Below are positions 17,942 to 40,236 of a DNA stretch of 46,584 bases, in pieces (positions within the stretch are counted from its first letter, which is position 1; each line of letters begins with the position of its first letter). Source of the DNA: Candidatus Sherwoodlollariibacterium unditelluris. Its GTDB lineage: Bacteria; Omnitrophota; Gorgyraeia; Gygaellales; Profunditerraquicolaceae. The position numbers were made by a program, and so were the translations under genes. Location of the stretch: assembly GCA_002771995.1 (NCBI GenBank), contig PCRK01000006.1, forward strand, positions 6,687 to 53,270, read 5' to 3'. The notes beneath the pieces are model-generated. The model had not been told where the DNA came from. It was given only the letters and a program-made list of their open reading frames with translations, and did no database searches.

Positions 17942-19006
17942 TTAAGTAATTCTCCTTAAGTAATTTTTATAATTCTCTTTAATGTCTCCCAGGGAATCCG
18001 AGCCAAATTTCTCCAACATTGCATCGGCTAAGACATAAGCGCAGCTAGACTCAGCCACAACCCCGGCAGCGCTAACTACACAAGTGTCCGAGCGCTCTAC
18101 AGCCGCTTTGGAAGGCCGATTGGTCTTAATATTAACCGAATCCAACGGGTTCATCAAAGTAGATATGGGCTTCATACAGGCGCGAATGACTAATTCCTCG
18201 CCGTTAGAGACCCCGCCTTCAATGCCGCCGGCATTATTAGTTTTACGGAAATATCTCTTAGGGACAATCCCCTGCGGGGACAGTCCCTTACCACGATAAA
18301 TCGCATCATGCACCTCGGAACCGAAACTTACGGCATAGCCAAACCCTAAACCAATCTCCAGCGCCTTTATCCCGGGGATAGACATTACCGCCTGAGCAAG
18401 GCGTCCATCTAATCTTTCATCCGGCTGGACATAACTACCTAAACCCACAGGGAGGCCTTTAGCCCTAACTTCAAATATGCCTCCCACCGTATCCTTGAGC
18501 CTGATGGCTTCACTAATCTTATCTTTCATAGAACCAATGTTATTTTCTCCGCCAATAGATAAAACTCTGCTGGATATTTTTATCTTAAACTCCTCCAAGA
18601 ATATTTTACATATTGCACCTATGCCTACGATTACTGCCGTATTCCTGGCTGAGGCACGCTCTAAAACATTTCTTATATCAGTAAATCCATATTTTAAAAG
18701 TCCGCTTAAATCCGCATGACCCGGACGCGGACAAATTACTTTAGGTAATCTCTCAATACTAAAATCCTTATTTCTAATCAATAAAGTGAGCGGACTTCCT
18801 AAGGTCTTATTATTTTTCAGCCCGGAAAATATTTCGGCGCGGTCATTTTCGATCTGCATACGCACTCCCCGGCCAAAACCCGCCTGCCTGCGTTTTAGTT
18901 CCTGATTGATTTTAGCTAAGTCTATCCTTAGCCCTGCCGACATACCCTCTAATATCGCTACCATCGCCTTTCCGTGCGATTCACCCGCGGTTAGAAACCT
19001 TAACAT
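17942..19006 (-). CDS. aroC: Chorismate synthase
   Basis: MLRFLTAGESHG N-terminus and the RKTNNAGGIEGGVSNG motif. Confidence 0.95.
   Translation of the reverse strand: MLRFLTAGESHGKAMVAILEGMSAGLRIDLAKINQELKRRQAGFGRGVRMQIENDRAEIFSGLKNNKTLGSPLTLLIRNKDFSIERLPKVICPRPGHADLSGLLKYGFTDIRNVLERASARNTAVIVGIGAICKIFLEEFKIKISSRVLSIGGENNIGSMKDKISEAIRLKDTVGGIFEVRAKGLPVGLGSYVQPDERLDGRLAQAVMSIPGIKALEIGLGFGYAVSFGSEVHDAIYRGKGLSPQGIVPKRYFRKTNNAGGIEGGVSNGEELVIRACMKPISTLMNPLDSVNIKTNRPSKAAVERSDTCVVSAAGVVAESSCAYVLADAMLEKFGSDSLGDIKENYKNYLRRIT
18260..18288. repeat. 29-nt GC-rich palindrome inside the aroC coding sequence
   Basis: AGGGACAATCCCCTGCGGGGACAGTCCCT differs at 2 of 29 positions from the intergenic copy at 39206-39234. 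It encodes GLSPQGIVP in frame. Confidence 0.75.
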
Positions 19007-19708: not shown

Positions 19709-20914
19709 TCATTCTACTATTTTTATTAGGTGAACTACCCGTTCCCTGTGAGGAAACAGGCTTCTTGGTTCATGGTTCAGTCTATTGAGCAAACTCCCCA
19801 AGCGTTGATTCCCGTAGTTCCTACGGTATTCTTCTATTCCAAGTTTTAGTATATTTATGGACGCATTCTCATCTCTGTCCATATCTATACCACATTTACT
19901 ACATTTGTGCCTTCTCACCCACAATGCCTTATGGACTATTTCGCCACATCCACTGCATATCTGTGATGTATTGCGCGGAGATACTGGCAGGGCATATTTG
20001 CCACACTCATCTGTTTTATACAGAAGTTTCTGGCAGAATCCGTTCCATGCCACATCACTGATGCTCTTGGCTAAATAGCGATTCTTAACCATATTCTTTA
20101 CCGCCAAGTCCTCGTAGGCAATCAGTTCATATTTATCAACTAATCTTCTACTTAACTTATGAGTAAAATCATTTCGTTGACTCCTTATCTTACAATGAAT
20201 TTTTGCCACAATCTTTTTTTGTTTCTTTCTATTATTAGAATCTTTTTTCTTGCGTGATAGCCATCGCTGTTGTCTGGCTAATTTTATTTCAGAATTTCTA
20301 AACCATCTTGGATTATCTATCTTTTCTCCGTTACTCAAAGTAGCAAATGAATCCAATCCCAAATCAATACCAATAGCAGTTTTTATCGGCCTGTTTTCTA
20401 TCTCTTTGTTTTTTATCTCCAAAGAAAAACAAGCATACCATTGATTTCCTTCTTTTATTATCAAACAAGTTTTAATTGTCCCTTTAATTGGTCTATGAAG
20501 TTTAATTTTAATATTGCCTATTTTAGAAAGATGAAGTTTATTACCTTTAATTTCAAAACCAGATTGCGGGTAACAAATAGAGTTATAGGAATCTCTGCCT
20601 TTGAAATGCGGAAATCCCGCCTTTTGATGTTTTTCTATTCTGCCAAAAAATGCCTTAAAAGATTTATCTAATCTTCTTAAAACATCTTGTTGTGTTTGAG
20701 AATGAACTGATTGATATTCAGGGAATGACTTCTTCAATTCTGGTAGTTGGTTTATCTGGTCATAACAGGAGATAGATTTACGAGATTGTTTATATGCAAA
20801 TATTTTCTGTTCTAATGCAATATTATATAGACGACGGCACAATTCAATATCCGAAAGTAGTTTCTGGAGCTGTTTTTTATTAAGATATATTCTATATTTA
20901 AAAGTTCTTGTCAT
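19709..20914 (-). CDS. tnpB: TnpB (RuvC-like RNA-guided nuclease of IS200/IS605)
   Basis: Starts MTRTFKYRIYLNKKQ. RuvC triad candidates are IGIDLG, IAYEDL and DRDENASINI. Zn finger CSGCG..CSKCG is present. The track ORF extends to 20998, but the ATG at 20914 overlaps the tnpA stop and fits the family N-terminus. Confidence 0.9.
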   Translation of the reverse strand: MTRTFKYRIYLNKKQLQKLLSDIELCRRLYNIALEQKIFAYKQSRKSISCYDQINQLPELKKSFPEYQSVHSQTQQDVLRRLDKSFKAFFGRIEKHQKAGFPHFKGRDSYNSICYPQSGFEIKGNKLHLSKIGNIKIKLHRPIKGTIKTCLIIKEGNQWYACFSLEIKNKEIENRPIKTAIGIDLGLDSFATLSNGEKIDNPRWFRNSEIKLARQQRWLSRKKKDSNNRKKQKKIVAKIHCKIRSQRNDFTHKLSRRLVDKYELIAYEDLAVKNMVKNRYLAKSISDVAWNGFCQKLLYKTDECGKYALPVSPRNTSQICSGCGEIVHKALWVRRHKCSKCGIDMDRDENASINILKLGIEEYRRNYGNQRLGSLLNRLNHEPRSLFPHRERVVHLIKIVE

Positions 20915-21306
20915 AGATTTTTTTGTTCTGCAATATATTTTCTTATTGTTTCTGATGTTACAGTTCCCGCAGAACCTATGAAATATGTGCGAGTCCACAA
21001 TTCATCTTTTATTATTTTCTTTAACTGTAAGAATTCTTGTCTCATTTTTCTACTTGAATATCCTTTAATTATATTAACTATTTCTGAAGGAGACCACCTG
21101 GGCGGAGCTGAAATGAAAAGATGAATATGGTCAGGCATTATTTCTAATGCTAAAATAGAAATATTATTTCTTATACAAGACTCTCTTATTATCTCTCCTA
21201 ATCTCAATTCCATTTGGCCAGTAAACAATTTTTTTCTATATTTAGGGATCCAGGCAATATGGTAATTTAGATTGTAAATACTGTATCTCGTTTTATTAAC
21301 ATTCAT
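20911..21306 (-). CDS. tnpA: IS200/IS605 family Y1 (HUH) transposase TnpA
   Basis: 131 aa, with the HUH motif PDHIHLFIS and a C-terminal Tyr region ETIRKYI. Confidence 0.9.
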   Translation of the reverse strand: MNVNKTRYSIYNLNYHIAWIPKYRKKLFTGQMELRLGEIIRESCIRNNISILALEIMPDHIHLFISAPPRWSPSEIVNIIKGYSSRKMRQEFLQLKKIIKDELWTRTYFIGSAGTVTSETIRKYIAEQKNL

Positions 21307-21421
21307 ACCTATATTGTATACCTATTTAATATTTCGTCAATAAAAATCAGAAAATATTTTTATGAGAGAGGTAATGCAAGAATTATTTCTATTGGCAAAG
21401 ATATAATTTCCAATTATAATA

Positions 21422-23308
21422 ATGTTTATGATTTACGACCGTTTCCAAAAAGAGGCAATTGGTTATATTAACGAGGGGTTCTCAGTCATTGTCTCAGCGC
21501 CTACTGGAGCGGGAAAAACCGCGATTGCCGAACATGTAATCACGACCTCCTTAGAAAAAAAGATAGGCGTAATCTATACCGCGCCGATTAAGGCCCTCTC
21601 TAACCAAAAGTTCCGCGATTTTCAGGGCCAATTCAAAGATAATATCGGCATATTAACCGGAGATGTATCGCTAAACCCTTTCGCCCCGGTTTTAATCATG
21701 ACCACCGAAATATTCCGCAATAAAATCTTAGATGAGCCGCAGACCCTAGAAAGATATTCTTGGGTAATATTTGACGAGATTCATTATATTGATAATCCTG
21801 AACGCGGGACAGTCTGGGAAGAATCACTTATGTTCCTGCCTAAGCATATGAATATATTAGGGCTATCCGCGACCATACCCAATATTAAACAATTCGCCTC
21901 CTGGATTGAATCCATACATAATAAGCCGATAAAAACCGTAATTGAGGAAAAACGCCCGGTTCCCCTGCACTTTTTCTTTCAGGCGGGAAATGAAGTAGTA
22001 GATAAAATAGAGCAGCTTAAAAGATTTAAATTCGGTAAACCCAATAAATTATACGGGCTCATAAATTATGTGCGTAATCAAGAGGGGCTGCCCTGCATAT
22101 ATTTTGTCTTTGGCCGAAGGCGCGCTGAAGAATTAGCCGCGGAATTAGCCAGTATAAACTTTTTGAACAAAGACGAAAGAATACAAATTACCGGACTCTA
22201 TAATTCCCTCTGTGAACGCTTTGGCTTAAAAACCGACCGCACTGCGCAGGATTTATACCAGCTTGTGCAACAAGGCATTGCCTACCACCACGCCGGGATG
22301 CTTCCTACCTTAAAAGAGGTAATTGAAAGGCTATTCACCAGCCGGCTCATAAAAGTTATCTTTACCACGGAAACATTCGCCCTGGGTATAAATATGCCGT
22401 CTCGTTCGGTTATCTTTGATGGGCTGCGTAAATTTTACGGCCGCTATGTGCGCAACTTAAAAACGCGGGATTTTTACCAGATGGCCGGGCGCGCAGGCAG
22501 GCGCGGCATAGACACAGAAGGCTTTGTTTATTCCCGCATCAACCTTCAGAAGATAAGGATTGATGAAGCAAAACGCATAATCTTTGGCCCCCCTGAAGAA
22601 GTAAGAAGCCAGCTGAATAATTCTTACGCTACGATACTTAACCTCTATGAAAAATATAAAGACGAGCTCTTTAAGGTTTATTCTTCATCGCTGCATTATT
22701 TTCAGTCGCGTAAAAACGACCAAAAAGAGGCCTTAATGCTAATTGAAGCAAAATTAAAACTACTTAAAGATTGGGGTTACATAGAAGGCAAAAATCTGGC
22801 TCAAAAGGGCCAGTTTGCCAAAACTGCCTATGGCTATGAATTAATTTTAAGCGAGCTTTACGGCCAACAGATTCTAGAACAGCTTGATGAATTTGAATTA
22901 GGCGTAGTTGCCGCGGCTGTTGTCTTTGAGCCGCGTAAAAACCAACGTATACCTTCGGGTCTGTCAAAATCTACGCGCCGGATTAAAAAAACCTGCGAAG
23001 AAATATACGATAAGATTAAAAATAAAGAGCGGAGATTTCGCATTTATCCTTTTAGCAAAATACCTTATTTCCACCTAAGTACAGCTATGGAGGCGTGGCT
23101 GCGTGGGACAACCTTTGATAAAATTCTAAGGCTTAGCGATACTGACGAAGGAGAAGTGGTGCGCTATTTCAGGATGGGTGTGCAGGTCTTACGCGAAATC
23201 TCTGATTCAAAAGCCGCCTCTTACATCTTAAAAGACAAAATCAAAGAAACCATCCGAGTAATTAACCGCGACGTGGTGGACGCCGAAAAACAGCTGCGCG
23301 AAAGCTAA
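21422..23308 (+). CDS. Ski2-like DExH helicase with a DSHCT-like C-terminal domain
   Basis: Motifs APTGAGKT, TAPIKALSNQK, DEIH, SAT and QMAGRAGRRG. The C-terminal WLRGTTFDKILRLSDTDEGEVVRYFR resembles DSHCT. This is the only plus-strand gene. Confidence 0.85.
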   Translation: MFMIYDRFQKEAIGYINEGFSVIVSAPTGAGKTAIAEHVITTSLEKKIGVIYTAPIKALSNQKFRDFQGQFKDNIGILTGDVSLNPFAPVLIMTTEIFRNKILDEPQTLERYSWVIFDEIHYIDNPERGTVWEESLMFLPKHMNILGLSATIPNIKQFASWIESIHNKPIKTVIEEKRPVPLHFFFQAGNEVVDKIEQLKRFKFGKPNKLYGLINYVRNQEGLPCIYFVFGRRRAEELAAELASINFLNKDERIQITGLYNSLCERFGLKTDRTAQDLYQLVQQGIAYHHAGMLPTLKEVIERLFTSRLIKVIFTTETFALGINMPSRSVIFDGLRKFYGRYVRNLKTRDFYQMAGRAGRRGIDTEGFVYSRINLQKIRIDEAKRIIFGPPEEVRSQLNNSYATILNLYEKYKDELFKVYSSSLHYFQSRKNDQKEALMLIEAKLKLLKDWGYIEGKNLAQKGQFAKTAYGYELILSELYGQQILEQLDEFELGVVAAAVVFEPRKNQRIPSGLSKSTRRIKKTCEEIYDKIKNKERRFRIYPFSKIPYFHLSTAMEAWLRGTTFDKILRLSDTDEGEVVRYFRMGVQVLREISDSKAASYILKDKIKETIRVINRDVVDAEKQLRES

Positions 23309-38168: not shown

Positions 38169-38489
38169 TTAAGCCTTGATCATTACCAAGAGCATCTTGA
38201 AACGGTCTACAGTCTTTAAAGAATGCGGCTTGTTTGCCGGCATAATCATGGTTTCGCCTGCTTTTAGGTAATATTGCTTGCCGGCAATATTAATTTCTGC
38301 CTTGCCATCAAAGATATAAACTAAGGCATCAAATGGCGTAGCATGTTCACTTAAGCCCTGCCCTTTATCAAAAGCAAAAAGTGTTATTGTGCCTTTCTCT
38401 TTCTTGATAACTTCCTTACTGACAACAGCACCCTCTTGATAATCTACCAAACTAACTAAGCTTCCTACTTCTCCAACAATATTCATCAT
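38169..38489 (-). CDS. Cupin domain protein
   Basis: 106 aa. HATPFDALVYIFDGKAEI...AGETMIMPANKPHSL fits the two cupin motifs. Confidence 0.75.
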   Translation of the reverse strand: MMNIVGEVGSLVSLVDYQEGAVVSKEVIKKEKGTITLFAFDKGQGLSEHATPFDALVYIFDGKAEINIAGKQYYLKAGETMIMPANKPHSLKTVDRFKMLLVMIKA

Positions 38490-38553
38490 AATTAAGTAAT
38501 GTGTCCCCGGATTTCTTCCAAATAAATTTAAAGACCGTTAATATCTAACTATA

Positions 38554-38789
38554 AATGAATCTGGCGGATTTTCGAGCGAATGGAGCTTTTAGCCAGAGGA
38601 CGCTTGAGCAAACGAGGGAATCTGAACGCGGAAGCATTCAGACGCCGAGCATGTTTGAGCCCATCCTGGCGCGGAGCGCCGACGGGCGAGTTGCGCAGGC
38701 GCCGAGTTTGCGAAAGATCTCTGGCGTGCCCCTAAATCTTATCTTCGTGGGGCAAAAGCGACCTGAGCGAGAAAACCGACAGATTCATT
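38554..38789 (+). ncRNA. Candidate structured RNA, copy 1 (unclassified)
   Basis: Closing stem AATGAATCTG (38554-63) pairs with CAGATTCATT (38780-89). Inner helices are 38592-98/38719-25 and 38608-13/38706-11, plus a hairpin at 38727-54. Shares conserved unpaired motifs with copy 2. Strand was inferred from GNRA-type loops. Confidence 0.5.
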
Positions 38790-38919
38790 AAAAAGAACGA
38801 CCTGAGGGACAGTCCCCTATTGAGTTACGCTAAAAAATAATTCTACAACATAAATTGTTACAACGGGTTACAGTATTTGCTGCCCCGTATGGACTCGAAA
38901 AACTAAATCCCATCTTAAA

Positions 38920-39149
38920 AATGAATCTGGCGTTTATGTGAGCGAATGAAGGTTTTAGCCAAAGCAGCTTGAGTATTTTCGGGTATCCCAAGGCCGTCCG
39001 AAAGGACGGCAATCTTGGGATGGCGATGCTGTCTGAGCGCCGAGGTAGAGACCGAGGCGCGAGTTCAGCAGCCACCGAAAATACGAAAGACCTTTGGCGT
39101 CCGCCGCAGGCGGAAAACCGACCTGAGCGAACAAAACGACAGATTCATT
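38920..39149 (+). ncRNA. Candidate structured RNA, copy 2 (unclassified)
   Basis: Same closing stem (38920-29/39140-49). Helices at 38958-64/39092-98 and 38973-82/39075-84. A GAAA-capped hairpin is at 38993-39010 and another hairpin at 39100-14. All of these covary with copy 1. Confidence 0.5.
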
Positions 39150-39205
39150 AAAAAGAACGACGAAAGATTTCAGCACGCGAGCAATATCCCAAAGAGCAAA
39201 ATCTG

Positions 39206-39234
39206 AGGGACAGTCCCCTACGGGGACAGTCCCT
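39206..39234 (-). terminator. Possible intrinsic terminator of the SPFH gene (a copy of the 29-nt palindrome)
   Basis: AGGGACAGTCCCC-TAC-GGGGACAGTCCCT forms a 13-bp stem with one mismatch. On the minus strand it is followed by CAGAUUUUGCUCUUU. Confidence 0.4.
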
Positions 39235-39277
39235 GTAAGTGCCTGCAATTTATTTCGCCGGCTTGTCTTCTTTATTC

Positions 39278-39336
39278 TGGTATAGGAAAGTATAAAATAC
39301 TTTCCTATACCACTGCGAAAATCTCTAGAAGTTATT
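39278..39336 (+). repeat. Double-hairpin repeat, copy R2 (first hairpin perfect, second half diverged)
   Basis: TGGTATAGGAAAGTATAAAATACTTTCCTATACCACTGCGAAAATC, immediately after the SPFH stop. Confidence 0.75.
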
Positions 39337-40236
39337 TTACTTTTCCGAGATTTTCTTGTTTATCGGCAAAAAACCTGCCATTTCGCCGATAACATTAACT
39401 AACTCAGTATTGGCCGGAATAACAATTTTGGCGTTATTCACTAAAGACTTCTCGACCGCCTCAAGCTTTCTCAACACCTGAGCATTACCCACAAAATAAT
39501 GTTCCGCTGCTTCATTGACTAATTTTATCGCCGCTGCTTCACCTTCTGCCTCTAAAATGCGCGCCTGCTTTATACCTTCGGCTTTCTTAATCTCCGCCCT
39601 CTTCTGGCCGTCAGCAACAGTCTCAGTGGCTGTCGCGTAATCAATCGCGGCAATCTTTTCATTCTCTGCCTTAACTACCTTATTCATCGTTTCCTGAACA
39701 TCTTTAGGAGGATCGATTTCTTTTAACTCCGTGCGGACAATCTCTAAGCCCCAGCTAGCAGTTTCCTCGCAAAGAGTTTTATGCAATTCAGCGTTAATCT
39801 TGCCTCTTTCGCTATTGGCAGATTTTAAAGTAAGCGTACCAATAATATTTCTTAATGTAGTGCGCGCTAAATTTACAATCTGCCACTGATAATTATTTAC
39901 GTTATACTGACAGTTCTTAACATCAGCCTCATCAGCTTTTACTTTAAAATAAACCTGGGCATCTACTTTAGCGTTTAAATTATCATTAGTAATAATTTCC
40001 TGCGGTTCGGCATCTACCATCTGCTCGGTTATATTAATCTGATAGATATTTTCAACTATAGGAAGTACCCAGTTAAATCCCGGGGTAGCGAAACGATGAT
40101 ATTTACCAAACCTTTCGATCAAGCCTCGATGCGTAGGCCGGACAATTTTAATACCCATAAAGAAAAAAACTACCGCTGCCACAATAACCAATGCCAAAAT
40201 ACTCATACCGCACCCCCTTGCACAGTAAGTGCACAC
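39337..40236 (-). CDS. SPFH/band 7 (stomatin/HflK-like) membrane protein
   Basis: TM helix, then an SPFH core (IVRPTHRGLIERFGKY...) and a coiled C-terminal region. The likely start is the ATG at 40206 (MSILALVIV...). Confidence 0.88.
   Translation of the reverse strand: MCTYCARGCGMSILALVIVAAVVFFFMGIKIVRPTHRGLIERFGKYHRFATPGFNWVLPIVENIYQINITEQMVDAEPQEIITNDNLNAKVDAQVYFKVKADEADVKNCQYNVNNYQWQIVNLARTTLRNIIGTLTLKSANSERGKINAELHKTLCEETASWGLEIVRTELKEIDPPKDVQETMNKVVKAENEKIAAIDYATATETVADGQKRAEIKKAEGIKQARILEAEGEAAAIKLVNEAAEHYFVGNAQVLRKLEAVEKSLVNNAKIVIPANTELVNVIGEMAGFLPINKKISEK

Follow-up and report, generated by a model that had tools for sequence, protein, structure and literature searches.

The 46,584-nt stretch of contig PCRK01000006.1 of Candidatus Sherwoodlollariibacterium unditelluris (phylum Omnitrophota) analysed here, referred to as the window, contains a purine-biosynthesis cluster that surrounds a gap without genes. 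The gap measures 847 bp (38490-39336), in agreement with the ~850 bp given in an earlier reading of the window from its letters (the sequence-only reading), and lies between a SPFH/Band-7 gene and a cupin gene. On one side are purQ, purF, purM and the SPFH gene, and on the other the cupin gene, an open reading frame (ORF) of 137 aa, DUF5674, a 96-aa ORF and purD, all on the minus strand. A scan of the whole window for tRNA and tmRNA genes found none. Within the gap are two copies of a structured element, for which the sequence-only reading had proposed a novel plus-strand RNA with two covarying copies. This core proposal is borne out by 94 homologues, covariation, strand tests and the lack of an Rfam match. 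The coordinates proposed for both copies were exact (Table 1), and all seven proposed conserved blocks are present in both copies in a pairwise alignment in which 78% of the columns are identical. As plus-strand RNA, copies 1 and 2 each fold into a closed, multi-helix structure, with folding energies of -103.7 and -114 kcal/mol and z-scores of -5.2 and -10.9, respectively, relative to dinucleotide shuffles. None of 200 such shuffles matched the stability of either copy.

Homologues were sought with a 30-nt motif from the 3′ end of the element, which matched four loci in the genome collection, all four in metagenome-assembled genomes (MAGs) of Candidatus Omnitrophota. A looser 19-base motif that avoids the terminal helix P1 matched at least 119 metagenome stretches. 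The motif pattern is exact, and all family and copy counts given here are lower bounds, made among the matches listed. A covariance model, R1 (219 positions, 75 pairs), was built from the two window copies and those at loci L001, L002 and L004. This search, which had been suggested as a check, finds at least 94 full-length members scoring 113-259 bits, all on the strand designated plus by the sequence-only reading; further homologues, whose absence that reading would have counted against itself, are therefore plentiful. The members derive from the four MAGs and ~90 metagenome contigs, are 187-270 nt long (median 225) and have a median pairwise identity of 62%. Copy 1 matches R1 at 38552-38791 (plus strand, 175.3 bits, E 2.5e-43) and copy 2 at 38918-39151 (plus strand, 195.4 bits, E 1.5e-48). 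In the model alignment the two window copies are 61% identical, and each is 79-81% identical to copies in other genomes. Since they belong to different subfamilies and each is nearer to copies elsewhere, the two are old paralogues and not a recent tandem duplication.

The fold is conserved throughout the family. In the 94-sequence alignment 93.0% of the pair cells are canonical, compared with 77.9% when the partners are shuffled and 36-42% when they are slid by 1-3 columns. Both sides have changed in 53 of the 75 pairs (979 cells), and the covariation score of 0.367 (0.117 in shuffles) was reached by none of 500 shuffles. Examples of pair spectra are AU 49/UA 45, UA 32/GC 31/AU 30 and CG 30/UA 27/GC 26. 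The column pairs with the highest mutual information are predicted base pairs, and no pseudoknot stood out by mutual information in this alignment. The alignment was fitted to R1; as an independent check, MAFFT and RNAalifold were applied to 60 non-redundant members and recovered 8 of the 12 helices (H1, H2 and H4-H9), with compensatory changes in 36 of 50 pairs. The helix covariation first noticed between the two copies is seen across the 94 sequences as compensatory changes in H2, H4, H6 and H7, which are the helices previously described as P1 extension, P2, P3 and P4, respectively; substitutions in the homologues preserve the proposed helices rather than break them. A fifth helix, P5, does exist as a hairpin in both copies, but it is optional and only some subfamilies have it. 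The H8-H12 arm, absent from the earlier description, covaries too.

The consensus is an elongated structure of 12 helices with two three-way junctions and side hairpins whose length varies. P1 (10 bp, next to a conserved G·A) and P1b (8 bp), ~20 bp in all, join the 5′ and 3′ ends. The most conserved part is 5′-GAGCGAAUGnnGaUUUU facing 5′-AAAAuCGACCUGAGCGA in the consensus, with the U4/A4 helix next inward. As judged from the sequence, GAGCGA opposite GAGCGA can give G·A, A·G, G-C, C-G, G·A and A·G, and the 'nn' of this shell is either UC, which is Watson-Crick with GA, or GA, which would add a third tandem G·A. The CUUGAG/CGAAAG and UGAG/CGAG blocks are likewise able to form tandem G·A. The sequence and the alternation of Watson-Crick and GA dinucleotides suggest that the blocks originally described as single-stranded are probably runs of tandem sheared G·A pairs in continuous helices. 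With these non-canonical segments included, the element would be a long continuous rod with two three-way junctions. The tip of H7 is variable: when long, it often has a GNRA loop followed by CAAU, and in 34 members H7 carries GGAGCGAAGCGAC in place of the long GNRA form. These features suggest a compact tertiary fold with a platform that could bind protein or metal.

Several tests place this fold on the plus strand. Over all pairs on the sense strand, GU plus UG pairs number 169 versus 59 for AC plus CA; at one conserved pair, 56 sequences have U-G and 25 have C-G. Two positions carry either Watson-Crick dinucleotides or 5′-GA/5′-GA, which points to the plus strand because tandem sheared G·A pairs could form there, while the opposite strand would have U·C/C·U. 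The folding energy of the sense strand is the lower one in 93 of the 94 members, and GNRA hairpin loops number 39 on the sense strand and zero on the antisense strand. The plus-strand assignment of the sequence-only reading, made from its GNRA loops, agrees with the G-U excess, the loop counts and the folding energies.

Table 1. Coordinates of the two copies, of features in the surrounding gap and of copies of a second element, designated (c). Positions without a locus prefix are those of the window
Feature	Position	Strand	Basis or remark
Cupin gene	38169-38489	-	
SPFH/Band-7 gene	39337-40236	-	
Copy 1, subfamily 'cluster 3'	38554-38789	+	R1 match, fold
Copy 1 P1	38554-38563/38780-38789	+	Family-model helix coordinates
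Copy 1 P1b	38565-38573/38771-38778	+	
Copy 1 G·A-rich shell plus U4/A4	38576-38590/38754-38768	+	
Copy 1 H4	38592-38598/38719-38725	+	
Copy 1 H5	38603-38605/38714-38716	+	
Copy 1 H6	38608-38617/38702-38711	+	
Copy 1 H7 hairpin, GGAA loop	38621-38642	+	
Copy 1 H8-H12 arm	38643-38701	+	
Copy 1 optional hairpin (earlier P5)	38726-38753	+	
Copy 2, subfamily 'cluster 5'	38920-39149	+	R1 match, fold
Copy 2 P1	38920-38929/39140-39149	+	Family-model helix coordinates
Copy 2 P1b	38931-38939/39131-39138	+	
Copy 2 shell	38942-38956/39114-39128	+	
Copy 2 H4	38958-38964/39092-39098	+	
Copy 2 H5	38968-38970/39087-39089	+	
Copy 2 H6	38973-38982/39075-39084	+	
Copy 2 H7 hairpin, GAAA loop	38986-39020	+	
Copy 2 H8-H12 arm	39021-39074	+	
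Copy 2 optional hairpin (earlier P5)	39099-39113	+	
3′ tail AAAAAGAACGAC	38790-38801 (copy 1), 39150-39161 (copy 2)	+	Identical direct repeat
GAAAGATTTCAGCACGCGAGCAATATCCC, like 3′ half of outer-stem (P0) module	39162-39190	+	Flank comparison; resemblance only
Candidate 5′ strand of a degenerate outer stem around copy 2	38875-38895, pairing 39215-39235	+	Minimum free energy fold of 38830-39250
Palindrome GGGACAGTCCC, a separate short repeat of this genome	38806-38816, after copy 1	none	Direct-repeat search and count
Two GGGACAGTCCC palindromes after copy 2	39207-39233	none	Jointly can form an 11/12 bp hairpin (read from sequence)
Element (c)	L109:3830-4011, L107:3920-4089, L071:6280-6463	-	
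Element (c)	L001:3910-4067	+	
Element (c)	L004:2728-2903, L002:1734-1847, L052:557-720, L052:6555-6713	-	Further copies in alignment

No known RNA accounts for the element. The scan with Rfam models that had been proposed (Rfam 15, 4227 covariance models) gave no match in the whole window at the gathering threshold. At E<=10 the region 38400-39400 gave four chance-level matches, three of them outside the copies; the one over a copy is Scr6925, at 15 bits on the minus strand of copy 1. The earlier statement that no riboswitch, RNase P, 6S, tmRNA, signal recognition particle (SRP) RNA or ribozyme is matched therefore holds for Rfam 15. At 15-16 other loci of the family, Rfam models found only rRNA, tRNA and an FMN riboswitch, none of which is the element. 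No match was obtained in viral contigs by motif scans or in phages and plasmids by blastn, and the searchable literature, sequence strings included, yielded nothing relevant.

Individual candidates were also considered and rejected. The element differs from 6S RNA in having two three-way junctions and internal 'loops' closable by G·A, with no large bubble, and the 6S models are unmatched. Group I and group II introns gave no model match at E<=10; the elements are intergenic and their 5′ and 3′ ends pair. Integron attC sites are single hairpins of 57-141 nt, while the element is 187-270 nt long and branched with extensive conserved sequence; no GTTRRRY/RYYYAAC ends were found on reading the flanks, and no integrase recurs nearby. 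AAUGnnGA...CUGA resembles a K-turn or C/D box, but as read from the sequence its strands are symmetric and lack a 3-nt bulge. The reverse complement of the AAAGAAC tail resembles boxA, but it is on the wrong strand, of low complexity and present in only ~1/4 of the members. The likeness of AGCAGCC to SRP helix 8 fails because the A is not conserved, and the SRP models are unmatched. Like omega-RNA (HEARO), the IS110 bridge RNA and retron msr-msd, which are 150-300 nt long and covary because they must bind the protein of their element, the family is multi-copy, sharply bounded and strongly covarying. Unlike IscB-TnpB omega-RNA and these other RNAs, it has no adjacent nuclease, recombinase or reverse transcriptase gene within 6 kb at ~90 loci, and their Rfam models are unmatched.

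The element also resembles large structured orphan RNAs of bacteria, namely the raiA motif RNA, OLE, ROOL and GOLLD. These were likewise discovered by comparison alone, have many covarying helices and invariant junction or loop nucleotides indicative of a tertiary fold, show no fixed gene association, sometimes lie beside tRNA genes and had no known function at discovery. The raiA RNA, at about 200 nt, is also close in size. However, the element matches none of their Rfam models, even at E<=10. The element differs from them in occurring in Omnitrophota and not on phage or viral contigs, in its long terminal helix, which can reach 50-60 bp, in being rich in potential tandem G·A, and in having several copies per genome, including near-identical ones in unrelated flanks.

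We also compared the gene neighbourhoods of the homologues, another check that had been suggested. Clustering of 543 flanking ORFs within 6 kb of ~90 loci gave no recurrent partner protein beyond SPFH (7 loci, the most frequent neighbour) and purM (6 loci), and Pfam searches identified the neighbours as housekeeping genes. Relative to both flanking genes the element is antisense at ~45 loci, sense at ~20 and mixed at ~14. The earlier description of the RNA as antisense to every neighbouring gene is thus correct for the window but not for the family. The order purM-SPFH-element is shared by the window, L001 and L002. The cupin protein of the window is identical on 17 contigs, and in all three places where both flanking genes are present the gap is again 847 nt; comparison of filled and empty sites in these three places in the window's own species found no empty one. 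The tandem pair looks fixed in this species. Copy number is low, with two pattern matches on a 1.87-Mb contig (exact pattern, a lower bound).

Other copies behave as discrete units. Within the same metagenome, copies that are 95-98% identical occur in unrelated flanks (L081/L085, L058/L071, L110/L084 and L115/L007). In the three near-identical pairs that were aligned, identity starts and stops at the base of P1, and no target-site duplication was found at their junctions; no conserved tetranucleotide adjoins P1 in the family flanks. The family is a low-copy, dispersed, self-contained module, a property beyond the reach of an analysis of the window itself. One member, at L023 (3219-3462, minus strand), has a 20-nt perfect palindrome, CCTGCCTGCCGGCAGGCAGG, ~37-40 nt in, within its U4 tract, and is otherwise intact; a similar GCCTGCCTGCCGG..GGCAGG is found in the L047 flank. 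Some copies are near genes for stable RNAs. tRNA genes are convergent with the 3′ end of the element at L018 (5454-5525, 6 nt away) and L113 (1831-1904, 75 nt away), and another at L052 (989-1063) is convergent with a 3′ fragment of the element ~3 nt away. L041 (4431-9870) has a complete rRNA operon and, at a distance of 1.3-2.7 kb from its 5S end, two oppositely oriented copies.

Transcription signals of its own are not evident. A consensus promoter scan found no plus-strand site upstream of either copy, and 38300-39450 contains no terminator-like site. The TAATAT hexamer noted upstream of copy 1 is present (38539-38544), but as a promoter it lacks a -35 partner in the scan, and other members show no promoter-like hexamer at that distance. 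Across 87-89 members no -10-like hexamer occurs at a fixed upstream distance, except for TAnAAT over the start of P1, where it more likely lengthens that helix. These members have U-rich 5′ and A-rich 3′ flanks, which likewise lengthen P1 and do not make a terminator: in the 12 nt past P1, 48% of the members have at least five A and 21% at least five T. Because the three aligned near-identical pairs share identity only up to the base of P1, no shared promoter is carried along. By eye, roughly one quarter of the members have an AAAGARC-like tail past P1 in their downstream flanks.

In some members the terminal helix is much longer. In L058 and L042 a separate inverted-repeat module adds 35-50 bp to it, and the outer-stem (P0) module flanks long-form members such as L042, L077 and L113. 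The inverted-repeat module UUUGCUGGAGCGUGCAUUAGAAAAUUUUUGGC ... GGCAAAAAUUUUCAGCACGCGGAA was seen at L042 (473-770), L058 (3255-3640), L077, L113 and L052 (757-982), and the window sequence at 39162-39190 resembles it. Elsewhere the same module occurs as a direct repeat or a lone half, and at L052:757-982 it lies inside the shell of the main element. In the window, 38875-38895 and 39215-39235 may be a degenerate outer stem of copy 2, a pairing predicted by folding one sequence and without covariation support.

A second conserved element, (c), accompanies the main one. It is ~170-190 nt long and stem-closed, repeats the GAGCG motif and has the consensus UUUUAGCGGGUGGCUUGG..GGAGCGGGCA..GAGCGACG..CCGAGCGAAG..GCGAGAAACAAnCCAAGACAGGACCCGCUAA. 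It has no Rfam match, and analysis of its G-U pairs favours neither strand. In at least 12 loci it is directly beside the main element in fixed relative orientation, with 0-20 nt between them, and many other loci have 3′ fragments of (c) (..ACAGGACCCGC) after the main element. No copy was found in the window by BLAST from one copy or by a core-motif scan. Four loci have one ORF separating the main element from (c) (L001:3127-3855, L002:1924-2571, L004:2913-3440 and L039:369-1037). The four ORFs are mutually unrelated, and that of L001, the one scanned against Pfam, has no domain. The outer genes of L001 and L002 are common, with SPFH on one side and a protein with a SecDF head domain on the other. 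The two elements may bracket an insertion spot for variable genes.

The repeats exist as a family with a defined strand, fold, distribution and modularity. We consider the chances about even that they represent an as yet undescribed RNA family of Candidatus Omnitrophota, structured and non-coding, that is stable, processed, trans-acting and tertiary-folded and duplicates as a discrete module. Such an RNA would be made within longer transcripts or from non-conserved promoters, and double-strand-specific cleavage at the base of the terminal helix would set its ends, much as rRNAs are released from processing stalks. As in rRNA processing stalks and intervening sequences, a long helix of 5′ and 3′ flanks encloses a structured RNA, a layout that would permit release by RNase III; unlike them, the element lies outside the rRNA operon (the L041 copies included), and its cleavage is a prediction. 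Release from longer transcripts is the most economical proposal given the long terminal helix and the lack of signals of its own. The excised RNA would act in trans as a stable, tertiary-folded molecule, in which the invariant internal 'loops' rich in G·A would offer a platform for binding protein or metal and the GNRA loops would dock within the molecule. The module would be inherited vertically at some loci and also duplicated or copied between loci as a P1-bounded unit. Several points weigh against this RNA-gene reading. Transcription, the expressed strand, the RNA ends, processing and action in trans are predicted, and G·A pairing and GNRA docking rest on sequence patterns. About two-thirds of the co-oriented contexts are antisense to the flanking genes, so that read-through cannot supply sense RNA there, and a conserved promoter was not found. 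Clustering of the flanking ORFs of ~90 loci gives no partner protein. Mechanically called ORFs abut the P1 ends or overlap them by 2-7 nt in ~20 cases, 3′ fragments of the element occur in L003 (after cysS), L052, L081 and L068, and a decayed copy at L052 (513-757) has the shell (P1, GAGCGA segment and U4/A4) around a different core; a selfish repeat fits these observations as well as a gene family does. Every match was seeded by the 3′ motif, which biases breadth and copy number, and the taxonomy of the family depends on four MAG titles.

The main rival, which we regard as possible but less probable, is that the element is no host RNA gene but a dispersed repeat, mobile or selfish and non-autonomous, similar to MITEs, BIME/REP, ERIC and Correia elements. 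Its fold would then be kept for its own spread or for local effects on transcripts such as stabilisation, processing or insulation. This would account for near-identical copies in unrelated flanks with identity ending sharply at P1, several copies on one contig, occurrence in both orientations with gene ends at the termini, fragments and the shell around a different element, long inverted repeats around some copies, the palindrome inserted in L023, the adjoining repeats and tRNA genes, and the lack of an evident promoter or terminator. ERIC/IRU, BIME/REP, Neisseria Correia and pneumococcal BOX/RUP elements are also intergenic, occur in both orientations, have pairable terminal inverted repeats and are mosaic or nested with other modules, and the terminal hairpin of Correia elements is cut by RNase III. 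However, each of these is essentially one imperfect palindrome of 35-150 bp, present tens to hundreds of times in a genome and confined to one genus or family, while the element is branched, strand-specific, 225 nt long, low in copy number and spread over many genomes. Neither a target-site duplication nor a conserved target was seen, the genes within 6 kb include no recurrent transposase, reverse transcriptase or other protein, and the terminal inverted repeat covaries rather than holding a fixed protein-binding sequence. The position is orthologous across species and looks fixed within one. At 62% median identity 93% of the pairs are kept and the unpaired blocks are invariant, which indicates long-term purifying selection on a branched, strand-specific fold, unlike that of simple palindromic repeats.

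Much less probable is a structure of single-stranded DNA rather than RNA, such as a site for an HUH-type transposase or a priming or origin-like site. The strand-specific fold would suit it, G·T pairs being tolerated in DNA too, as would the sharp ends without target-site duplication and the missing transcription signals. In addition, the tip of H7 in 34 members contains GCGAAGC, a hyperstable DNA mini-hairpin. Known single-stranded DNA sites, however, are single hairpins, and 225 nt with 12 helices, two junctions, GNRA tetraloops and tandem G·A is typical of RNA. No HUH transposase or replication gene is found near ~90 loci, and plasmids, phages and viral contigs have no match. The GC skew of the sense strand in the window is negative; if replication-driven, this would make it the leading-strand template, the wrong one for IS200/IS605 chemistry, a weak argument since skew is confounded with gene orientation. 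A minus-strand cis-regulatory leader, for instance a tandem riboswitch for cupin-DUF5674-purD, is close to refuted. The gap sits within the purine cluster and copy 1 would be 62 nt upstream of the cupin start codon, but every strand test favours the plus strand and no purine, ZTP or PRPP riboswitch model matches. A riboswitch or leader on either strand is also at odds with the family: orientation is mixed, with the opposite one at ~20 loci, the downstream gene differs at nearly every locus and the top neighbour family reaches 7 of ~90. No expression platform or terminator is present, and the 12 nt past P1 are A-rich and not U-rich. We give even less credence to small protein-coding genes, either the 78-aa ORF at 38555-38791 (plus strand) or the antisense ORFs 38830-39075 and 38955-39248. 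An ATG-to-TAA frame does cover copy 1 exactly, likewise in L001, and 82% of the members have a long antisense stop-free frame. However, the frame open in copy 1 meets a stop at codon 7 in copy 2, dinucleotide shuffles alone give stop-free frames in 68% (antisense) and 34% (sense, observed 47%), the open frame varies among members (33/28/13) as do the lengths modulo 3 (36/32/26 of 94), and substitutions are paired across helices and not at third codon positions. The open frames are mostly a composition effect, and the earlier dismissal of the ORFs over the copies as spurious was justified. A final proposal, unlikely in our judgement though less so than these three, is that the element, element (c) and the outer-stem module form a new modular system of stem-closed RNA 'cassettes', in which RNAs are copied between loci and nested. 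The G·A-rich core might then be catalytic, with self-excision or ligation at the base of P1, or a handle for a dedicated protein machine, and the system would be a new ribozyme class or RNA-guided mobile module, not an ordinary small RNA.

As judged by Rfam 15, the phage, plasmid and viral collections and the searchable literature, the element is a new structured RNA class of Omnitrophota. Very few classes of large bacterial RNA with an intricate fold and an invariant core are known, and time and again such RNAs have proved to be ribozymes, riboswitches, ribonucleoprotein scaffolds or, recently, RNA cages that assemble themselves. At least 94 diverse members, a well-determined 12-helix structure and a clear strand are in hand. 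The combination of dense potential tandem G·A, a terminal helix of up to 50-60 bp, copying as a discrete unit and mosaics with a second structured element is unusual. Omnitrophota have not been cultivated; their cells are very small and possibly depend on hosts, and their RNA biology has hardly been explored. The element provides a test case of whether a structured RNA can be a mobile genetic module without an adjacent protein gene, and a cassette system, if real, would add a ribozyme class or an RNA-guided mobile module.

The window also contains smaller repeats. The palindrome GGGACAGTCCC occurs nine times, both strands counted, compared with 0.21 expected, and in L039, L027 and L098 the RNA element is followed by palindromes like it. 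The hairpin that the two palindromes after copy 2 could form (39207-39233) may mark where the minus-strand SPFH transcript ends. Another adjacent pair, at 18261-18287, falls within the chorismate synthase ORF (17942-19006, minus strand) and there encodes ..GKGLSPQGIVPK..; a small palindromic repeat seems to have been inserted in frame into this housekeeping gene. A perfect inverted repeat of 16 bp, TGGTATAGGAAAGTAT AAA ATACTTTCCTATACCA, lies at 39278-39312, 25 nt past the SPFH stop codon, and is followed by a U-run on neither strand; it is the source of the only chance-level Rfam matches in the gap outside the copies. The region 20001-21400 is low in G+C (0.32 versus ~0.42) and adjoins 21422-23308, the only long plus-strand ORF of the window (628 aa); this stretch beside the ORF may be a horizontally acquired segment.

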